A stretch of DNA of 38,946 bases, from the sequence record SRR31156797_3141. One strand, given 5' to 3'. The notes under the pieces were generated by a model, which saw only the letters and a list, made by a program, of their open reading frames with translations, searched no databases and was not told the origin of the DNA. Below, piece by piece: positions 13,128 through 38,946 of the stretch. Numbering within the stretch: the stretch's first letter is position 1; every line of letters begins with the position of its first letter. Both the position numbers and the translations under genes were made by a program.

Positions 13128-13198
13128 TGCCCGATGGTGTAATGGCAGCACAACAGGTTTTGGTCCTGTCGGTCAAGGTTCGAGTCCTTGTCGGGTAA
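13128..13198 (+). tRNA. trnQ: tRNA-Gln (anticodon TTG)
   Basis: Acceptor stem TGCCCGA/TCGGGTA, D-arm GGTGTAATGGCAGCAC, anticodon arm ACAGG-TTTTGGT-CCTGT, T-arm CAAGG-TTCGAGT-CCTTG. TATCTTTG promoter at 13094-13101; no encoded CCA. Confidence 0.97.
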
Positions 13199-13211
13199 CA
13201 GATTCAAAATG

Positions 13212-29838: not shown

Positions 29839-32800
29839 TTACTCGAGGACAACTTTTTTGGTTATGCTACTCCCATCGGATTTTAGTAACCGGATAAAAT
29901 AAATGCCCGGGCCAACATCACCCTCCAGTGAAATACTATATTCCCTGCTGCCCTTATCAAACAGCATTTTTTCATCCAATATGGTTTTCCCAAACAAATC
30001 AATGAGGCTTATTCTTGCTGATTGTTTTTCTGATGTGCTCCAAACAAAACGTATTGAATTTCCTGCAACCGGATTGGGATAAACCTCAAAGACCTGATCT
30101 GTGGTTTGGGAGCGCACTTCGGTTTCCTGAGTAAATTCATCAGCCACATCCAATCCCGACTTCAGGATTTCAACTTCATCCCATGAAATATTTATAAGTT
30201 TCTGATCAGCAGTTCCATTGAATGATACAACCTCGCCACCATCACTATCAATGGAAGAAAACCCTGTTTCTGAATCGATCAACAGTGTTAGGTCGTAATT
30301 TCTAAGGTCTTCAGGGAGCAATTCGGTGTTGATGTAAATCGTGAGTTCTTGTCCATCCAAAGCATAGGAGATTTCGCTTTGATCCCTCGCCAGCAGGTAT
30401 TCGTAAACCTCCTGTACCGGAGCCATCCAAATCCTGTCTGAACCACTCTTGCCGTAGGTTTGCTCAATGTAATTCATGTAATATTCAAAAGTGGGGAACA
30501 CCAGGCTTGCACCGGTTTGCTCGTACCGTACACGGTGCGTGAATTCGGTCCACCAGTAATGATTGCCATTTGTACTCCATTGTGCAACATCATCAAGATA
30601 CCTGCTCACATTATCCGGTGTAAATTCATCGTCATAAATCATTTTACGGTAAATGCGCAAACCATCAAAATTGATCGGGGCATCTATCGGGAGGCCATCC
30701 TGCAAACCAAGATAGCAACCGTGTTTCGAATAGTTCACCTTGTTGCCCAGGTCGAAAGCGGGTTGGATGTAGTTGGCGTCGCCACTGGGTGGAACAAAAT
30801 GGGTCATATCAATACCAGCCATCTGATTGACGTATTCCCTGTTCTGGGTAATCTCAAAGTTGTAATCAGTACTGCCATAAGCGGCATGCGAGTAACTGTG
30901 ATTTAGTACATCCCATCCGGCGTCATACATTTCGGTCAATTGTGTCCAGGTAATGTAATCCGGGGTGTTAATATGAAGATCAGAGTAGTTTGAGTTTACC
31001 GAATTCCAGGCCAGTGCTCCTCTAAAAGGAATGTCATTGCCACAACCATCCGTGTAGAACAAGCCGGGGTAATATGTAGAATTGGCTTCGATGTAACCTC
31101 CATTAAACATTTGAAAGGCGTAGGTGTAGGCGTCAATCCTGCTGTCGTCCAGGGTAAAGCTGTAGGCGAAGTCTTTGTTGTATTTCAGTTTGGCTTTTGA
31201 AACAGTCAGGTTTTCAGGAACCTCATCCAGTTGTATTGTTAGCATGATCCCCTGATCCGGAGAAAAATCTTCAATGGTGATGGTATTTGTTTCAGAAGTT
31301 GCAGTCAGCCCCTCGGTGTCGGTTACCATGGCGTAGATCTCATAAACTCCCGGTTCCTCAATGAAAAGGTCGGATTGGAAGGGAGAGGAAGCTGATTCAA
31401 AAACTTTTGTTCCATCCATAAAAAATTCCACCATTTGAACATCCAGGATTTCCTGTGAAGCTTCCACAATTGTGGCTACCAATGCTCCGGCACTTCCATC
31501 GCCGTTGTGGGCATTGTCCAGTTTATCATCGCCAAACCATAAATAAGGATTGGGGCCACCGGTAATTTCAATTTTTTGAATACCAATTTCGAAAAACCCG
31601 GCATCGGCACTGTATGGAAATTCGAAATAAGCAATCTCACTAAAATCGATTGTGGGATCAAAATCTGCAAGCGGAATGCTGATGGTTGTCCAATCGCTGA
31701 GATCACTTCCGGTTGCATCAACATATGGCGCTAAAACCAGCAATCCCTTTGCCTGCGGGCGTATGCGGATTTTGTTCCAGTTGACCTGATTACAGAATTT
31801 CTTCATCGTGATTTCAAGCGTTGTATTCCCTCCGTTTATCAAATCTACTTTCGGACTGTAAATACTGGTGGGATTGTTTCCAACCTTCACTTTTCTGTAC
31901 CCGGTTTGGGTGTTTGAAACCAGCATGTAGGCAGGCTCAGGCTGAATTATCCCTGTTACCTCAGCTTGAACATTTAGCTGGGCAGGCGCCGGAAGCGTTA
32001 ACTGATCATCCGGACATAATAATTCAACCTGAAGTTCAGAATACTGAACTGCTGGTGGCACAACGTCAAGGGTAATGTAGTTAGATAAAGCAATATTCCC
32101 TAAACTGGTGACAACTGCAGCCATCATACTGTAATTTCCTTCCTGCACTGACGGCATCTTGAAATTGAATGGAGGGAAGGATTTTTCGGCTACAAACACA
32201 TCATTTTGAAAAAATTCTACTTTACTGATGTATTCATCGGGGGGTGGTGGGATAATGGTTTCGGCAACGAGCTGTCCGGGGCTCCCATTTCCATCATGGG
32301 CATTATCAGTTTTTTCTTCACCAAACCAAACAAAATCATGCTGGCCACCTGTAAATTTCATCGAATAAATGTTCAGTTCAAAGTTTCCTGCATTGGTACT
32401 ATATGGAAACTCAAAAAAGGCCATATTTGAAAAATCTATGGACGGGTCAAAGTCAGTGAGGGGTATTTTTATCAGGTTTCCATCGGGCCCTACTCCTCCT
32501 GCAGCAACAACGTATTTATGAAGATTAAGGCTGCCGGTTGCCGAAGGCCTTATTCTTATTTTCGACCAGTTGGCATTGCCCAGCTCATCCGACAAAACAA
32601 TTTCAAGGGTATCGTTTCCAGAGGCAACCGGATTAATTTTTGGCCCATAAATACTACCGGCATTATAGCCGAATTTTATTTTCCGATACCCGGTTAAATC
32701 ATTGGTTACATGCAGATAAGGCTTTGGCAATGGGTCAGCCCCTGAAACAGTTGCATCAACAAAAAGATCAGCCGGAGCTTCAAGCACCTGGCCCTCCTGT

Positions 32801-33675
32801 GGCGAGCTGATACTTATGTTAAGGTTAACCTCAGGAGGTTCGTTTAAAAGTATTGTCACTGGTTGCGAAAGTTCTGTGGTTCCATCAAGATTGAGCACTT
32901 CGGCTGTGAGCGAATTCATGCCGGCCAGCTGGAATTCATGCAGAAAAGAAAATGGAAATTCGGTATCTTCTCCCAAGGGCTGGCCATTGAGGCTAAAAAT
33001 AACCTTCTCAACATTACTTATCGGTTCGGTGCCCAGATCAACTATGGCAAACAGTTGGCCGGGGCCGTTAAACCCATCATGAATGTTGTCGTTTTTGTTT
33101 TGGCCAAACCAGATATAGGGTACTGAGCTGCCTGTAAATTTTATTTCGCTGATGCCCAGATCAAACGGATCAGCATCCGCACTGTAAGGGAATTCGATAA
33201 AATTAACAGCCGTAAAATCGATGGATTCATCGAAATCAGCAAGTGGAATCGTAATAGTCGTCCAATCGTCAGCATTACCGCCGGCCTCAGCTATATAAGA
33301 TGAAAGATTTAAGGATCCTTTAGCTGTTGGCCGAAACCGGATTTTTGACCACTCAGCATCTCCGGTAAAATCTTTCAGGGTAATTTCAACCTTGTCATTT
33401 CCCGGCCCAACTACGTTAACGCTGGGGCTGTAAAGAATATCCGGATTGTTTCCAAGTTTTAGTTTCCTGTATCCGGTCTGATCGTTGATTACCCTTAGAT
33501 GGGCGGGTTCTCCGGGGATTACCCCATCCACTTCAGCAGTGAGGTTTACAACTGCAGGGATTTCAAATTCATCTCCATTTGTCGGGTTGGTAATGTGGAC
33601 TAACTGTCCGCTAACGTTTACGGTAATAAATGCACCAATCAATACCAGGATGAGAGGTAGCAGCTTTTTTTTCAT
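29839..33675 (-). CDS. T9SS-secreted multidomain protein: three Ig/CBM-like repeats, a NodB-type polysaccharide deacetylase and a CTD
   Basis: Signal peptide MKKKLLPLILVLIGAFITVNVSG (ATG 33675); three repeats of about 260 aa; FTLDD and NHSYSH motifs; CTD VYPNP...GIYFIRL...TKKVVLE. Confidence 0.85.
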   Translation of the reverse strand: MKKKLLPLILVLIGAFITVNVSGQLVHITNPTNGDEFEIPAVVNLTAEVDGVIPGEPAHLRVINDQTGYRKLKLGNNPDILYSPSVNVVGPGNDKVEITLKDFTGDAEWSKIRFRPTAKGSLNLSSYIAEAGGNADDWTTITIPLADFDESIDFTAVNFIEFPYSADADPFDLGISEIKFTGSSVPYIWFGQNKNDNIHDGFNGPGQLFAIVDLGTEPISNVEKVIFSLNGQPLGEDTEFPFSFLHEFQLAGMNSLTAEVLNLDGTTELSQPVTILLNEPPEVNLNISISSPQEGQVLEAPADLFVDATVSGADPLPKPYLHVTNDLTGYRKIKFGYNAGSIYGPKINPVASGNDTLEIVLSDELGNANWSKIRIRPSATGSLNLHKYVVAAGGVGPDGNLIKIPLTDFDPSIDFSNMAFFEFPYSTNAGNFELNIYSMKFTGGQHDFVWFGEEKTDNAHDGNGSPGQLVAETIIPPPPDEYISKVEFFQNDVFVAEKSFPPFNFKMPSVQEGNYSMMAAVVTSLGNIALSNYITLDVVPPAVQYSELQVELLCPDDQLTLPAPAQLNVQAEVTGIIQPEPAYMLVSNTQTGYRKVKVGNNPTSIYSPKVDLINGGNTTLEITMKKFCNQVNWNKIRIRPQAKGLLVLAPYVDATGSDLSDWTTISIPLADFDPTIDFSEIAYFEFPYSADAGFFEIGIQKIEITGGPNPYLWFGDDKLDNAHNGDGSAGALVATIVEASQEILDVQMVEFFMDGTKVFESASSPFQSDLFIEEPGVYEIYAMVTDTEGLTATSETNTITIEDFSPDQGIMLTIQLDEVPENLTVSKAKLKYNKDFAYSFTLDDSRIDAYTYAFQMFNGGYIEANSTYYPGLFYTDGCGNDIPFRGALAWNSVNSNYSDLHINTPDYITWTQLTEMYDAGWDVLNHSYSHAAYGSTDYNFEITQNREYVNQMAGIDMTHFVPPSGDANYIQPAFDLGNKVNYSKHGCYLGLQDGLPIDAPINFDGLRIYRKMIYDDEFTPDNVSRYLDDVAQWSTNGNHYWWTEFTHRVRYEQTGASLVFPTFEYYMNYIEQTYGKSGSDRIWMAPVQEVYEYLLARDQSEISYALDGQELTIYINTELLPEDLRNYDLTLLIDSETGFSSIDSDGGEVVSFNGTADQKLINISWDEVEILKSGLDVADEFTQETEVRSQTTDQVFEVYPNPVAGNSIRFVWSTSEKQSARISLIDLFGKTILDEKMLFDKGSREYSISLEGDVGPGIYFIRLLKSDGSSITKKVVLE

Positions 33676-33940
33676 ATAAAGTTTTTTGTTTATTGATCGG
33701 AACTTTTTAATCGGCCTAAATCTTATTTGTTTCAATCTGGGAAAAAACATCCCGATTCGGAACCCACTCCCAATAGCAAAATAATGCATCAAACAGTGAA
33801 AGTTTACCTTACACATAATGATGAGAAGGGCCAATCGAAACTGCTATCAACAGCGTGATTGGGGGAATAAGACCCGGGAATTGACCAGTTGATTAAGCAA
33901 ATAAAATCAAGGCATAATTAAAAGAACGCCGGTTAATGCG

Positions 33941-34927
33941 TTACAGTTTGACAAAAACCCTGCCTTGCATTTTTCCTTTTAAAATTTGACTGATCTCATG
34001 GGGTAGATCACCCAAATTAATTTCACGGGTCATTTCAAATAATTGATCAGGCTTCCATTCTCCGGCCAGCTTTTTCCAGATTGCCGCCCGATGCGGCATT
34101 TCACAATTCTGCGAATCAATGCCAATAAGTTTTACGCCCCGCAGGATGAATGGGAAAACGTTGATGGGAAGATCCGGTGAGGCCACATTGCCACATGCCG
34201 TAACAATGCCGTTCAGGTTTGTTGCTTTGATGGCGTTTGCCAGTATTTCGCCACCAACCGTATCCACCACACCGGCCCATTGTGGTTTTAAAATGGGGCG
34301 CTCTTTTTTTTCGAGCACTTTTTCTCTTGAAAGGATTGTTGTGGCGCCGAGGTTTTTCAGAAATGCATGGGCGCTTTCTTTGCCCGTAACAGCAGCCACT
34401 TCATAACCCAGCTTTGCAAGGATGGAAACAGCCAAACTTCCTACACCGCCGGTGGCTCCGGTAATCAGGACAGGGCCTTTTTCGGGACTGATTTCTTTTG
34501 CAATTTCTGCAACCGCCATGCCCGCAGTAAACCCGGCAGTTCCCAGAGCCATACTTTCTTTTGGAGATAATCCTTCCGGCATTTTAACAACCCATTCTGC
34601 AGGTACCCGGATGTACTGGCCAAATCCGCCTGAGGTGTTCATGCCCAGGTCATAGCTTGTAACGATGACCTCATCACCCGGCTCAAACCAATTGTTTGAA
34701 GATTCTTCAACAATTCCGGCAGCATCAATTCCGGGGGTATGCGGATAAGTTTTGGTAACTCCCCGGTTTCCCGACGCGGAAAGCGCATCTTTATAATTGA
34801 GTGATGAATAATGCACACGGATCAGTACGTCCCCTTCCAGGAGCTGAGCGGTATTGCGTTCTTTGATGGATCCTGTAAATTCTTTTTCGCCGGTTTGTTC
34901 AACGAGGTATGCCTGGTAGGTTTTCAT
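33941..34927 (-). CDS. yhdH: YhdH/YhfP-family (AcuI-like) zinc-independent quinone/enoyl oxidoreductase
   Basis: YSSLNYKDAL, PGIDAAG, GTAGFTA, ITGATGGVGS, VFPFILRGVKLIGIDS; likely start ATG 34927. Confidence 0.92.
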   Translation of the reverse strand: MKTYQAYLVEQTGEKEFTGSIKERNTAQLLEGDVLIRVHYSSLNYKDALSASGNRGVTKTYPHTPGIDAAGIVEESSNNWFEPGDEVIVTSYDLGMNTSGGFGQYIRVPAEWVVKMPEGLSPKESMALGTAGFTAGMAVAEIAKEISPEKGPVLITGATGGVGSLAVSILAKLGYEVAAVTGKESAHAFLKNLGATTILSREKVLEKKERPILKPQWAGVVDTVGGEILANAIKATNLNGIVTACGNVASPDLPINVFPFILRGVKLIGIDSQNCEMPHRAAIWKKLAGEWKPDQLFEMTREINLGDLPHEISQILKGKMQGRVFVKL

Positions 34928-35125
34928 AAAATCTCCATTTTGATTTTCAAAAAACGAAAGTAGGAAAAAGTGATGAATACGTTTAGGCATATCAAAATCG
35001 GCAGATGAGCCAAAACCTAAAATACCACAAAAGCTTTTGCCCCGGGGGAATGATTTTTTATTGGTGGCTTTCAAATAATAATTTCACTATATTTGACGGC
35101 CTAAAAAACAAAAGTTGAACCGGGA

Positions 35126-35254
35126 ATGAGGAATCCCCAAATCACACTGGCCTTTGACGAATACCGCAACCGCGGGATGGTGAGCCTGTGTTTTGATGAG
35201 GAACCCTCAATTGCATGGTCCGATCAATTGCAATCCGGTAAAACCGAATTTTAA
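35126..35254 (+). pseudogene. 42-codon ORF, possibly a remnant of a Bacteroidota tyrosine integrase gene
   Basis: Has its own TATATTTG promoter (35088-35095). MRNPQITLAFDEYRNRGMVSLCF...WS resembles, from memory, N-termini of Bacteroidota integron-like integrases. Lies just before an attC-like site. Confidence 0.3.
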
Positions 35255-35387
35255 AAGTAACATACTCATGCACTGATGAATAACTAATAATTTTAAAAAT
35301 GAAATTTTCACTAAAAAATATTCTTTTTAACGGCATACGTCCCAGAACAAAAAAAGAATATTTTTTGAAACGGTATTCATCAGCCCG

Positions 35388-35455
35388 ACGGCTGATAACA
35401 TGCGAGACATAATGAATTGAAACATCATCATACTCGCAAAACGTTGTGCTTCATT
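35388..35455 (+). mobile_element. attC-like cassette recombination site (degenerate)
   Basis: GATAAC-a-TGCGAG ... CTCGCA-aaac-GTTGTGC: outer AAC/GTT boxes, an inner 6-bp inverted repeat and unpaired extra bases; sits at the composition shift. Confidence 0.5.
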
Positions 35456-35464
35456 CTACAGACA

Positions 35465-36310
35465 CTAAAGTGATTTCAAATTTGACTTTTTATAATCGCC
35501 TGGACTCAAGCCTTTTATTTTTCTAAAGGTACGATTGAAGTGACTTATACTTTCAAATCCCGAAGAGAATGCAATGGTTTGTATGGATAGGTCTTTAGTA
35601 AGTATAAGCTGACAAGCATTCTCAATTCTTGCAATATTTACAAAGGTTATAAATGAATACCCGGAGTGTTGCTTAAACCAACGACAGAAAGACTGGGGAA
35701 CCATATGAGCAACTTGGGCAACTTGAATTACCGTAAGCCTTTTGTCGAGATTTTCAAGTATGTAGTTGTTAATTCGTGAGAATTTAAACTGTCCTGAAGT
35801 TTTTTCTAGTTTTACCTTATACCGCTCAGATGCTAATAGGCTATATTCCTGATGAACCTCCAGATTACCAAGTAATTTAATTAGGCTACTAATCCTTTCC
35901 AATTCATTGAGATCTCCAAATGTTTGAATATCCTTTATGAGTTGATAATTTGGGTTTTTAAATAGAATACCTCTTTTGGCTCTTTCAAAAAGAACTTGTA
36001 GACGATCACATTCTCTAAACATTTTAAAAAGTCCATCAGAAAACTGAAAGACAAAGGCTATTTGGTCATTTTCAGTTGTGGGACTAACCCAATGGTGAGG
36101 TAGATTTTTTCCAACCAAAACCAGATCTAAATCACCAAACGGTAATATGGAATCACCAATAAATCGTGTGCCTCTGCCTCTGTATATCAATGTTAATTCC
36201 ATTTCTGGGTGATAATGCCAGTAGGGTTTAAATGCTTTGGATACCAGCCTAAAATATTTAAAAGACTGCTGAGATTTCTTTAAGTTGATTTGCTCTAAAA
36301 CTGGCTTCAT
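35465..36310 (-). CDS. AraC-family transcriptional regulator with cupin sensor domain
   Basis: WHYHPEMEL, GTRFIGD, NLPHHW; C-terminal FCRWFK, RIENAC, SGFESISHFNRTF; TACTTTTG promoter at 36325-36332. Confidence 0.93.
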   Translation of the reverse strand: MKPVLEQINLKKSQQSFKYFRLVSKAFKPYWHYHPEMELTLIYRGRGTRFIGDSILPFGDLDLVLVGKNLPHHWVSPTTENDQIAFVFQFSDGLFKMFRECDRLQVLFERAKRGILFKNPNYQLIKDIQTFGDLNELERISSLIKLLGNLEVHQEYSLLASERYKVKLEKTSGQFKFSRINNYILENLDKRLTVIQVAQVAHMVPQSFCRWFKQHSGYSFITFVNIARIENACQLILTKDLSIQTIAFSSGFESISHFNRTFRKIKGLSPGDYKKSNLKSL

Positions 36311-36449
36311 GAACTGTATTTTAGCAAAAGTAAATAAAAATTACCTAATATTTGTTTAGATATGCATAGTATTGGTTAAATACCGAAAACATTAATCTTG
36401 AGACACCCATTAATTTTGTAAATATATTTTATCTAAAAAAGCGTTCAAC

Positions 36450-38492
36450 ATGAATAAAATAATATTGTTTATTTCATTATTTATGATATTTTCTTGTAAG
36501 AATTCTAAAGAAAACTCTCAAGGTGAGAACTTCTCAAAAAATGTTAATCAGGTTGCTGCCACAATTGTAGATGATGGTGATAAACTACAGTTTTTCAACA
36601 ATGAACTTCAACCTTTAGATGTTGCATTTCAGCCATTTAAAGCAGGAAGCATAAAACCAAAAGGATGGATTTTAGACATGATGCAAAACGACCTTAATAA
36701 AGGCATTGTAGGTGCTTTGGCGGATTTGTATCCTGGAATTAAAGCAGACGATTTATACAACACCGCGCGCCGTGGTGGTATGGAAGATATTCCTGAAATG
36801 GGAGACTTGGTTCTTTCTGGTGAAGCATGGGAAAAATCTATCATGTGGTGGAATGCAGAAACTATTGGTAACTGGTGGGACGGATTTGTGCGTCATGCCT
36901 TTTTAACCGATAATGATAAAGCGATTCAGCAAGCACATGAAATTATTAACAATCTCTTGGCATCGCAAGATGAAGATGGTTATGTTGGTATCTACAAACC
37001 CAATTTGCGATATCAGCACGATGGTTCAAATGGAGAACTTTGGGCACAGACCACAGCGTTTAGAACCATGCTGGCCTATTATGAATTTACGCATAAACAA
37101 GAGGTTTTAAAGGCTGTTGAACGTGCAATGGTGTTAACCATGAAAAATTATGGCGAAGAAGGCAGCAATCCGTTCGATTTAAAAGATGAGTTTGGCGGTG
37201 TTACGCACGGATTAATGCTTACCGATGTTTGCGAAACATTATTTCAAATTACAGGGAATATAAAGTATCAAGCGTATGCCACCTATTTGTACAAAGCCTT
37301 TTCAACATTTTCAATCAATCGCTCGTTTAACGATTTGCGTTATCCATTTCTCAGTGAAAAAGAGGCTATGTTTCAAGGTCATGGGGTACATACATACGAG
37401 CACATCCGTTCAATGGTCAATGCCTACTACAATACAGGTTACCCCGAATTAAAAACCGCTTACCATAATATGTTAGATAAACTGGAGGTATGTATTTTAC
37501 CTAGCGGAGCAGGTCATGGCGATGAGTGGATCTTAGAATTACCCGCTGACCCTGATAAAACGGCTACCGAATACTGTACGATGTTAGAATTGCGAAACTC
37601 TTATGGAAGTCTTCTTCAGAAAACGGGTCAAATTAAATTTGCAGATGCAGCAGAAAAACTCACCTATAATGGAATGTTGGGCTTTAGAAATAAAGATGGT
37701 ACAGCCATTACTTACAGCAAGTTTGACAATTGTTATGTGTTAGACGGTCAACATCATAGCCATGGAGAAACTAAGCCGGAACCGCGCTATAAATATTCAC
37801 CAACGCACTCAGAACCTGCAGTGTGCTGCGTACCAAACTATGGTAGAAATTTAACCTATTTTTTGAATCAAATGTATATGAAGTCTGAGGGTGGAATTGC
37901 CATTACGATGTATGGTCCTTCGGAATTGACGACAGAAATCAATTCTACTCAAGTATCTATTACTCAAGAAACCAATTATCCATGGACAAATACCATCAAT
38001 TTTAAAATAAAAACAAAACAACCTGTTGCATTTACATTAAAATTGAGAAAGCCTCAATGGAGTGAATCTTTAGAATTTTCGAATATTGATGAGGTGAAAT
38101 TGGAGGGCGATTTTTATGTCATCACTAAAGAATGGCAACCGGAAGATAGTTTTTTGGTAACTTATAATAATCCTATTCAGACAAAAACGGCGGGAAATAA
38201 TGAGGCTTTTATACAAAAAGGACCATTGGTGTATGCCTTAGAAATTCCGCATGTTGAAAAAGCTATCAAGTATTATAATAAACCCAATTTCAAAGACTAT
38301 TACTGTTACCCGGAATCTGAAGCGTACAAAAATTTAATGATTATGGAGAATTCTGAGTTTACAACTTCTGATTCTGCAAACCTTCAGGGAAATTTCTATG
38401 ATACTAATAAACAAACAGCGATTGAAGCAACCCTAGTTCCTATGGGCAAAACCGTCTTAAGACGAGTAACTTTCCCAAAAAAGTTTAATTAA
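36450..38492 (+). CDS. GH127/GH146-like (beta-L-arabinofuranosidase family) glycoside hydrolase lipoprotein
   Basis: Lipobox IFSC, IKPKGW, QDEDGY, GHGVH, EYC and CC motifs (Zn/Cys site), QETNYPW, LRKPQW, GPLVYAL; TAATTTTG promoter at 36411-36418. Confidence 0.85.
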   Translation: MNKIILFISLFMIFSCKNSKENSQGENFSKNVNQVAATIVDDGDKLQFFNNELQPLDVAFQPFKAGSIKPKGWILDMMQNDLNKGIVGALADLYPGIKADDLYNTARRGGMEDIPEMGDLVLSGEAWEKSIMWWNAETIGNWWDGFVRHAFLTDNDKAIQQAHEIINNLLASQDEDGYVGIYKPNLRYQHDGSNGELWAQTTAFRTMLAYYEFTHKQEVLKAVERAMVLTMKNYGEEGSNPFDLKDEFGGVTHGLMLTDVCETLFQITGNIKYQAYATYLYKAFSTFSINRSFNDLRYPFLSEKEAMFQGHGVHTYEHIRSMVNAYYNTGYPELKTAYHNMLDKLEVCILPSGAGHGDEWILELPADPDKTATEYCTMLELRNSYGSLLQKTGQIKFADAAEKLTYNGMLGFRNKDGTAITYSKFDNCYVLDGQHHSHGETKPEPRYKYSPTHSEPAVCCVPNYGRNLTYFLNQMYMKSEGGIAITMYGPSELTTEINSTQVSITQETNYPWTNTINFKIKTKQPVAFTLKLRKPQWSESLEFSNIDEVKLEGDFYVITKEWQPEDSFLVTYNNPIQTKTAGNNEAFIQKGPLVYALEIPHVEKAIKYYNKPNFKDYYCYPESEAYKNLMIMENSEFTTSDSANLQGNFYDTNKQTAIEATLVPMGKTVLRRVTFPKKFN

Positions 38493-38697
38493 ATGAAAAA
38501 GCAACTTCTATTACTGGCATTACTCACTTTTGTTTTTAGTTGTAAAACAGAGCAAAAGAGCTAAATAGGGAGTTTAAAACAACTGAATTTTCTAATCCGC
38601 CTGATGGGCCAAAGAAGCTATTTGACATCAAATTTTTGCTGAAAGGTTCAGAAATGGAGACCCTTCCAACGACCCTGGTAAAGAAAACTTAACATAG
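38493..38697 (+). pseudogene. Remnant of a GH13 (neopullulanase/cyclomaltodextrinase-like) lipoprotein gene
   Basis: MKKQLLLLALLTFVFSCKTEQKS* then, across two frameshifts, ...FSNPP / WAKEAI*HQIFAERFRNGDPSNDP, which matches the GH13 N-terminal W.K.AIWYQIF.ERF.NGD..ND motif. Confidence 0.75.
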
Positions 38698-38932
38698 TAA
38701 TGTTGCTAAAAATGATTTGATACACATTCATCGCTACGGAGTAAAAAAATTCGGTGTGGCTCAAGCGGACAAATACTTTAATACTTTTTTTGAATATTTT
38801 GACATTATTGCCCAACGACTATATTCATTCGAGACGGTGGATTATATAAAAAAAGGTTATCGAAGATGTGTATGTGGTTCTGATAGTATTTACTATAAAG
38901 TGAACGATACGATTGTTGTAATCGGTAAATAA
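38696..38932 (+). pseudogene. parE: Truncated RelE/ParE-family toxin gene
   Basis: SNVAKNDLIHIHRYGVKKFGVAQADKY...GYRRCVCGSDSIYY. The first strand and start codon are missing, the C-terminus is shortened and there is no antitoxin upstream. Confidence 0.75.
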
Positions 38933-38946
38933 CAATGTACATTTTT

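Follow-up and report, generated by a model that had tools for sequence, protein, structure and literature searches.

What system once stood at the right-hand end of the contig SRR31156797_3141, and how much of it is left? The stretch of DNA analysed here (the window) is this complete contig of 38,946 nucleotides (nt); an identical contig is present in the source run, with a word depth of approximately 379. A sequence-only reading had proposed that the region from 35088 onwards is the start of an integron-like cassette array whose integrase was deleted. We found a dead recombinase, a docking site and foreign cargo, as that proposal would have it, but the recombinase and the site are not of the IntI/attC kind, and no array was demonstrated. 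We assign a probability of roughly two in three (0.68) to the following answer: the contig end is a decayed Bacteroidales gene-capture platform of the type known from rAID clusters (acquired interbacterial defence clusters associated with a recombinase), with a dead Xer-like recombinase, a docking site and foreign, AT-rich cargo. For comparison, contigs of public sequencing runs (X1, the source run; X2, lake water; X3; X4) were aligned to the window at the contig level, with one assembly for the junctions.

Recombinase stub, promoter and probable docking site

An open reading frame (ORF) of 42 codons (35126-35254, + strand), previously suspected to be an integrase stub, is indeed the stub of an Xer-like tyrosine recombinase gene. 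Compared by BLASTP with an intact 386-amino-acid recombinase of the closest relative genome (L098:537-1694), it gave an E-value of 2e-10, with 18 of 42 residues identical and a 10-residue gap; against a remnant in locus L094 the value was 9e-11. The stub retains residues 1 to approximately 43 with the internal gap of 10 amino acids, followed by unrelated codons and a stop. When five recombinases of the family were searched against the entire window by tblastn, a single match was obtained (35135-35224, E 9e-6), and no further recombinase remnant was detected, including between 35255 and 35439. The stub alone matched nothing in Pfam (E ≤ 10), NCBIfam (E ≤ 1) or a word-index protein search among longer proteins. 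It could be identified because nucleotide copies in the genomes of relatives lead to the intact recombinase. A DNA search of four relative genomes returned three significant copies (L094, L098 and L095).

The copy of the recombinase 5' end in L098 is 86% identical at the nucleotide level. In L094 (80% over 35080-35202, promoter included) and L095 (73%), homology begins at approximately 35074-35080. By this homology, the recombinase gene has a conserved promoter and leader region at 35074-35125 (+ strand). It contains TATATTTG at 35088-35095, which we take to be a Bacteroidetes -7 type promoter (TAnnTTTG). The motif had been described as an orphan promoter. It is present, but it is not orphan, since it is part of this conserved promoter region. 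TAnnTTTG is found at the equivalent position in L094 and L095 and also in the loose ends of other X1 copies. Part of the region (from 35118 or 35122 to between 35166 and 35202) recurs in two other contigs of the source run and in two lake-water contigs (X2), and each contig copy of the stub 5' end has a TAnnTTTG-like motif upstream. The two source-run copies show 9 and 11 differences per approximately 80 nt. Because these two contigs (4.5 and 10.7 kb) carry the 5' end of the recombinase gene, further copies of it may exist in the source genome and could act in trans.

At 35207-35232, where the homology of the stub to intact recombinases ends, two exact copies of TCAATTGCA lie 17 nt apart; the pair may be a trace of a slippage or deletion event that removed 10 codons. 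The closest relative genome holds a decayed copy as well (L094 1539-1881, G001:C709), in which an 83-codon stub with the same promoter is followed by two near-perfect palindromes. That the promoter and its 80-nt repeat might represent a small RNA or a riboswitch was considered and dropped: an Rfam scan of 34000-38946 (E ≤ 5) gave no match, and the repeat is protein-coding. A scan for sigma-70-type promoters and terminators revealed no excess (11 versus 14.4 expected, and 2 versus 2.9, respectively).

The class of the recombinase was assigned on the intact relative L098:537-1694, the stub itself covering only about 43 residues. This protein combines Phage_int_SAM_4 (PF13495, 4.7e-18) and Phage_integrase (PF00589, 8.6e-37) domains with an N-terminal extension of approximately 105 residues. 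Its top NCBIfam model is NF040815 (tyrosine recombinase/integron integrase, XerA type; 204.6 bits versus a cut-off of 220), followed by TIGR02249 (integron integrase; 204 bits in two stretches versus a cut-off of 265). The best solved structures are XerA proteins (4a8e, 1.4e-43). The relative aligns with IntI4 (PDB 2a3v) in two separate pieces, and a segment of 58 residues in IntI4 is faced by 17 in the relative; therefore, the IntI-specific insertion is absent. Judged by these comparisons, the recombinase is Xer-like, and the system is hence not an integron in the strict sense. The intact relative is 46-47% identical to the recombinase at the head of a rAID-like array (L172).

Intact recombinases of the family are followed, 30-170 nt past their stop codon, by a conserved core (...ATAcAcAaaC-GTT-Rnnn...), which in the closest subfamily extends to ...(G)TTCATT..A.A.AGAC. 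A sequence resembling this recombination site is located in the window at 35439-35464 (+ strand; G of GTT at 35443), at the junction of native and foreign DNA, and positions 35436-35464 agree with the family core on both sides of GTT. We ran a profile of 7 sites from recombinase flanks, with the window excluded, on the window and 12 loci (approximately 230 kb). The two best matches were L088 2226-2250 (E 0.089) and window 35439-35458 (E 0.66; the best in the window). The window site lies on the right strand, in the 210 nt that separate the stub from the cargo, and coincides with the break in GC content and the start of the homology to L088. The match carries weight because of this position and not because of sequence statistics.

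L088 is a marine contig of 12.7 kb with 33% GC, which encodes homologues of the two apparently intact cargo genes, an AraC-family regulator (56% amino acid identity) and a glycoside hydrolase of family 127 (GH127; 66%). L088 and the window cannot be aligned left of ACGTT, whereas right of it they are approximately 85% identical, including the 24 nt before the AraC stop codon. Strong hairpins lie immediately 5' of the core in L088. Two loci of one genome (L165 and L166) are identical from the recombinase gene through GTTGTGCG and differ beyond it, and contigs L146 and L147 terminate one base past GTT. Together with a second site in L163 and the start of the L088 homology, these sequences hint at a crossover at or just after GTT.

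The region 35394-35449 had been described as having attC architecture. The letters are there: GATAAC (35394-35399), a, and TGCGAG (35401-35406) are followed by CTCGCA (35433-35438), aaac, and GTTGTGC (35443-35449), and the GTT core matches the sites of the family. The hairpin, however, is at chance level. The R and L box spacings at this site are 1 and 4 nt, and such spacings do not fit attC. The element is best read as the docking (attI-like) site of the platform, not as an attC site. Stub and core are separated by an AT-rich spacer (35255-35439, GC 0.308). The 16-bp inverted repeat already seen in the letters is perfect (35313-35328 / 35351-35366), and there are also two 29-nt direct repeats (35313 and 35353) and an outer 10-bp inverted repeat (35273 / 35374). 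Since direct repeats, seen by eye, precede the core in intact platforms, the repeats of the spacer are possibly accessory binding sites of the docking region.

Foreign cargo and the truncated end of the contig

The DNA immediately left of the platform is native. The nearest database records are metagenome-assembled genomes of Lentimicrobiaceae and Bacteroidales; L001 shows 80-96% amino acid identity and synteny over 25.4-34.8 kb, and its contig stops inside the yhdH-like gene. This gene (33941-34927, - strand; acrylyl-CoA reductase family, NCBIfam TIGR02823 3e-133, 84% amino acid identity to L001) is the native flank and the last gene syntenic with relatives. GC content is 0.432 over 1-35073, 0.358 over 35440-38692 and 0.321 over 38693-38916. 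Both right-hand values are below the lowest of 128 sliding windows of 3.25 kb left of the platform (0.387), in agreement with the AT-richer block that the sequence-only reading had noticed.

The cargo begins with the AraC-family regulator (35465-36310, - strand; Pfam HTH_18 8e-23), which is 37-56% identical at the amino acid level to regulators adjoining GH127 homologues in L087-L092. The divergently transcribed GH127 gene (36450-38492, + strand) encodes a glycoside hydrolase with a lipoprotein-type signal peptide (Pfam PF07944 and PF20736, 2.7e-16 and 3.8e-15). Full-length matches with 58-69% identity were found in 6 metagenome loci, and a contig of run X2 is approximately 98% identical to the GH127 region (33 differences in 1858 nt). 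AraC lies 5' of GH127 and divergent from it, within approximately 1.8 kb, in G100 (L087) and in five of the six metagenome loci. The unit occurs also in ordinary chromosomal contexts (L087 and L089). The suggestion that AraC and GH127 form an unusual regulated cassette unit was thus not upheld: they are a conserved pair. To judge from their sequences, the two genes probably still work as a regulated glycosidase unit.

GH127 has no match in the genome of the closest relative (G001). Among the four nearest relative genomes one has a match, at 38%, and among 401 genomes of the phylum three have one (E ≤ 1e-30). Copies of the block at 91-98% identity were found in lake and marine metagenome runs. 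Because matches are this sparse in relatives and phylum while copies occur in metagenomes, the AraC-GH127 block is foreign to the lineage. Its entry by site-specific recombination at the GTT core is suggested by two loci, the window and L088.

GH127 is followed by the 5' remnant of a lipoprotein gene of glycoside hydrolase family 13 (GH13, the alpha-amylase family; 38493-38692, + strand). Here the evidence is synteny with L089, where an intact lipoprotein gene of the alpha-amylase family follows GH127 (L089:12046-13974, PF00128 2.9e-41); a 23-amino-acid piece in the window corresponds to the start of that gene. Only the first 200 nt are left, with a premature stop, two 1-nt deletions and a cut at 38692. 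Relative to the window, run X4 carries one additional A behind each of positions 38553 and 38603, and the X2 and X4 contigs continue beyond 38692 with sequence unlike the window.

On the other side of the cut lies a fragment of a ParE toxin gene (38693-38916, + strand; PF05016 1.9e-7, 32 bits versus a cut-off of 23, profile positions 6-79 of 89). The AraC, GH127 and ParE assignments made from the letters were thus recovered by Pfam, and the GH13 remnant by synteny. The ParE fragment has neither a start codon nor an antitoxin ORF and, with both ends cut, does not amount to a full-length fold. Its 5' end was lost at the 38692/38693 junction and its 3' end was cut by an insertion sequence (IS), leaving a stop-to-stop frame. 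The junction is therefore an illegitimate deletion fusion and not a site-specific one.

The window ends with the first 30 nt of the terminal inverted repeat of an IS21-family element (38917-38946, + strand), at which the assembly breaks off. TAACAATGTA, which had been taken for the start of another att-like site, lies within this repeat, and that interpretation has to be given up. The sequence from 38913 or 38917 to 38946 is common to three other contigs of the source run and to contigs of X3, each time with different preceding sequence. The summed depth of the IS end is approximately 4.6 times that of a single copy, which corresponds to about 5 copies in the source genome. Allowing up to 3 mismatches, the terminal 30-mer turned up 12 times, in 8 of 401 Bacteroidales genomes (reversed control: 0), often approximately 24 nt from contig ends. 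Behind it come tandem subterminal repeats, three or four in number and each about 24 nt long. An exact 30/30 end belongs to an element in L191 (11-3000) that encodes an IstA-like protein and IstB_IS21 (1.6e-54), and a 2.65-kb element in L190 (7346-9997) has an inverted end, an rve ORF and an IstB ORF (9.7e-67). Elements with the same 30-mer have TGT termini, IstA and IstB between terminal repeats, and the tandem subterminal repeats; the window holds 30 nt of such an element only. The four nearest relative genomes lack a 27-mer taken from the window end, which was recovered only in the wider sample of the order. A transposon of the Tn7 or Mu type at this end was considered and dropped once IstB had been found. 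In L192, two IS21-type ends face each other within 95 nt, as a solo end pair.

Two further features of the window lie to the left of the platform. Positions 29839-33834 (- strand) encode a 1331-amino-acid protein with Big_7, polysaccharide deacetylase and type IX secretion system C-terminal sorting domains, 81% conserved in L001. The sole tRNA gene of the window, tRNA-Gln (TTG) at 13128-13199 (+ strand), does not adjoin the platform.

Related platforms and alternative explanations

The recombinase family was detected in 125 of 301 sampled Bacteroidales genomes (E ≤ 1e-50). In 26 of the 151 matches listed, the 3' end of the gene lies at most 400 nt from a contig start, which means that assemblies tend to break just downstream of the recombinase. 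Among 12 extended loci, the co-directional genes downstream encode a BpuJI-type restriction enzyme and a methylase (L163), HamA (L167), Fic/DOC (L174), and a KilA-N protein together with group II introns (L165); L166 has group II introns. In 10 of 13 loci, the DNA downstream has a lower GC content than the recombinase gene. In L163, a second site is located behind a block of three ORFs with the BpuJI-type restriction endonuclease and the DNA methylase. In L172, the recombinase is followed by small co-directional ORFs, including a Tdi1 immunity gene of the type VI secretion system. GC content there is 0.48 in the recombinase gene and 0.26-0.39 in the next six ORFs, and five intergenic stretches of 58-85 nt share one motif and fold into a consensus hairpin, in which 7 of the 13 pairs show compensatory changes.

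Several other observations were made in these loci. Genome G498 carries two identical copies of the platform (L165 10086-12455 and L166 9665-15101). Group II intron reverse-transcriptase/maturase ORFs lie 1-4 kb past its sites, in three copies with identical Pfam scores across both loci. Integron attC sites are known targets of group II introns. Immediately 5' of the recombinase in L098 (3-536, G001:C646) lies a gene with a UvrD-like helicase C-terminal domain and a zinc ribbon, and a similar UvrD-like gene (30% amino acid identity, E 8e-15) occurs in L088 (3-830), upstream of the site and cassette region that lacks a recombinase. The UvrD-like gene may be a preferred neighbour or a part of the platform.

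The closest described systems are the rAID-1 clusters of gut Bacteroidales (Ross et al. 2019, bioRxiv 10.1101/471110), and nothing closer appeared in the portions of the literature on integron-like systems in Bacteroidota that were available to us. In the available text of the rAID papers, rAID-1 is called "reminiscent of integrons" (bioRxiv 10.1101/471110; PMC12247911), is reported from 226 of 423 Bacteroidales genomes and is defined by a tyrosine recombinase of the XerD-like type at the 5' end, at least 44% identical to BF9343_RS08045, at least two co-directional downstream genes, downstream GC content of at most 41%, repetitive intergenic motifs and orphan immunity genes as cargo (10.1101/471110). 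The family studied here resembles rAID-1 in its XerD/XerA-like recombinase at the 5' end with its own promoter, in the low-GC foreign genes downstream, in the hairpin-forming intergenic repeats of its arrays and in its wide spread in Bacteroidales. A conserved motif just 3' of the recombinase gene can be likened to that of rAID-1 by its description. In the window, the GC content of AraC (0.348), GH127 (0.371) and the block (0.358) lies below 41% (rest of the window: 0.432), and the stub is read in the same direction as GH127 and the remnants of GH13 and ParE, whereas AraC, the first gene, is opposite. The window differs from rAID-1 in its dead recombinase, in its single remaining site, in a cargo of a glycoside hydrolase unit and a toxin fragment, and in its host, which is environmental and Lentimicrobiaceae-like.

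Chromosomal integrons share with the family a tyrosine recombinase, an adjacent GTT-core docking site, foreign cassettes behind it and, in relatives of the window, hairpin sites between cassettes. Toxin-antitoxin genes in the cargo are a feature of sedentary integrons. The family differs from them in a recombinase that lacks the IntI-specific insertion, is transcribed towards the cargo and has the N-terminal extension. In place of the two or more box-bearing hairpins of an attC array, the window has one site, whose fold is at the level of shuffled sequence.

A number of results weigh against the gene-capture interpretation. The hairpin at 35385-35455 is no more stable than shuffles: on the + strand z is -0.47, and 58 of 200 shuffled sequences fold as well or better, and on the - strand z is -0.34, with 64 of 200. 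The profile E-value of 0.66 is weak taken alone. The pattern CGTTRNNNNTCAT occurs once in the window (35442-35454), but 0.71 occurrences are expected per window, and 52 of 100 shuffles contain at least one. A broad weight matrix of 22 sites placed the site fourth in the window, within the range of shuffle scores, and was rejected as too weak a site detector. There is no second copy of site or repeat in the window, hence no cassette bounded by two sites; the intergenic repeats of rAID-1 have counterparts in L172, and L163 has a second site. A right-hand boundary site is absent in both loci that carry the block behind a core, and the 12.7-kb contig L088 has no recombinase. AraC lies on the opposite strand, and the block is self-regulated with its own promoters, whereas rAID-1 typically holds short co-directional genes. 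No immunity gene was seen, as Pfam returned AraC, GH127 and ParE only. The likeness to rAID-1 is at the family level. All junctions are known from the contigs of one assembly.

Part of these results would also be explained by an ordinary strain-variable spot, at which an Xer-like relic of some other role (an integrase of an integrative element, or an invertase) happens to adjoin an unrelated transfer of AT-rich DNA, the GTT and the hairpin being coincidental or part of the AraC 3' region. The weak statistics of a single site with a chance-level hairpin would fit such a history, as would the illegitimate events evident at the locus (the 38692/38693 fusion and the IS21 insertion) and the existence of AraC-GH127 as a normal chromosomal unit elsewhere. 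We nevertheless regard it as rather unlikely: the same core recurs past the stop codons of several recombinases of the family without an AraC gene in the neighbourhood, in the window it coincides with the GC break and the start of the L088 homology, and a member of the family demonstrably heads a cassette array.

An assembly chimera that joined two organisms or loci at a short repeat is very improbable. In its favour are the GC break, the dispersal of 35118-35202 as a repeat through the source genome, and the origin of all junction evidence from one assembly. Yet the depth of approximately 379 compares with 318-397 for the other repeat-bearing contigs, as expected for one genome, and the repeat copies, approximately 87% identical, are too divergent to merge 31-mers. 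Moreover, two frameshifts in pseudogene debris, together with an IS end, are what real decay typically looks like. Hardly credible is a classical integron (IntI, attI, attC) with a deleted integrase. A tyrosine recombinase stub, a GTT-containing core, AT-rich cargo with a toxin-antitoxin remnant and the second rank of TIGR02249 for the intact relative speak for it, but that model stays below its cut-off and matches in two stretches, the relative lacks the IntI-specific insertion and matches XerA structures best, no second site is present, and the box spacings are unlike attC. The sequence-only reading had itself named three observations that would count against an integron-like array: a lack of further repeats, a stub without similarity to recombinases, and synteny of AraC-GH127 with yhdH across relatives. 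Further repeats are indeed lacking within the window, but the stub is similar to recombinases, and AraC-GH127 is not syntenic with yhdH in relatives.

Proposed decay of the platform and gene acquisition

We therefore return to the decayed gene-capture platform. When intact, such a platform consists of a recombinase gene with its own TAnnTTTG promoter and a GTT-core docking site 30-170 nt past the stop codon. Foreign AT-rich genes sit behind the docking site, and in arrays further sites or hairpins separate them. In the proposed course of decay, the recombinase gene was cut down to approximately 43 N-terminal codons, as seen in the stub, while the docking core, recognizable by homology at 35439-35464, would have persisted as a site. 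The foreign AraC-GH127-GH13' block lies directly behind this core and would have arrived by site-specific recombination at GTT. A later deletion joined the 5' end of GH13 to the 5'-truncated ParE gene at the 38692/38693 junction, before an IS21-family element inserted at 38916/38917. In this state, the locus is unable to rearrange by means of its own recombinase. It would be a decayed, single-site example, from an environmental member of the Bacteroidales, of the already described rAID-type systems, with an unusual cargo.

Two lessons concern annotation. A short "orphan" ORF that follows a strong Bacteroidetes promoter can be what is left of a recombinase gene, and contig ends of the kind found in this window are IS ends, not att sites.

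The cargo also raises a wider idea, which we consider possible but doubtful: that the Xer-like platforms of Bacteroidales are general gene-capture systems that take up self-regulated multi-gene units of several kb, and not only stores of immunity genes. It is based on the three-ORF restriction/methylase block between two sites in L163 and on the AraC-GH127-GH13 unit of the window. The AraC-GH127 unit is known in three states: as a chromosomal cluster (L089 and L087), abutting a GTT core behind a hairpin (L088), and behind a docking site (the window). If the idea is true, these states would represent cassette genesis caught in the act, and an exchange of genes among distant Bacteroidota in which the crossover falls at GTT or just behind it.

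How arrays of the rAID type are constructed and acquire their genes is stated to be open in the available text of PMC12247911. The relic and its relatives give handles on this process: the conserved docking site with its GTT core, a cargo block traceable in and out of the platform context, and three independent hints of the exchange point, namely paralogues that diverge after the core, contigs that end there and homology that starts there.

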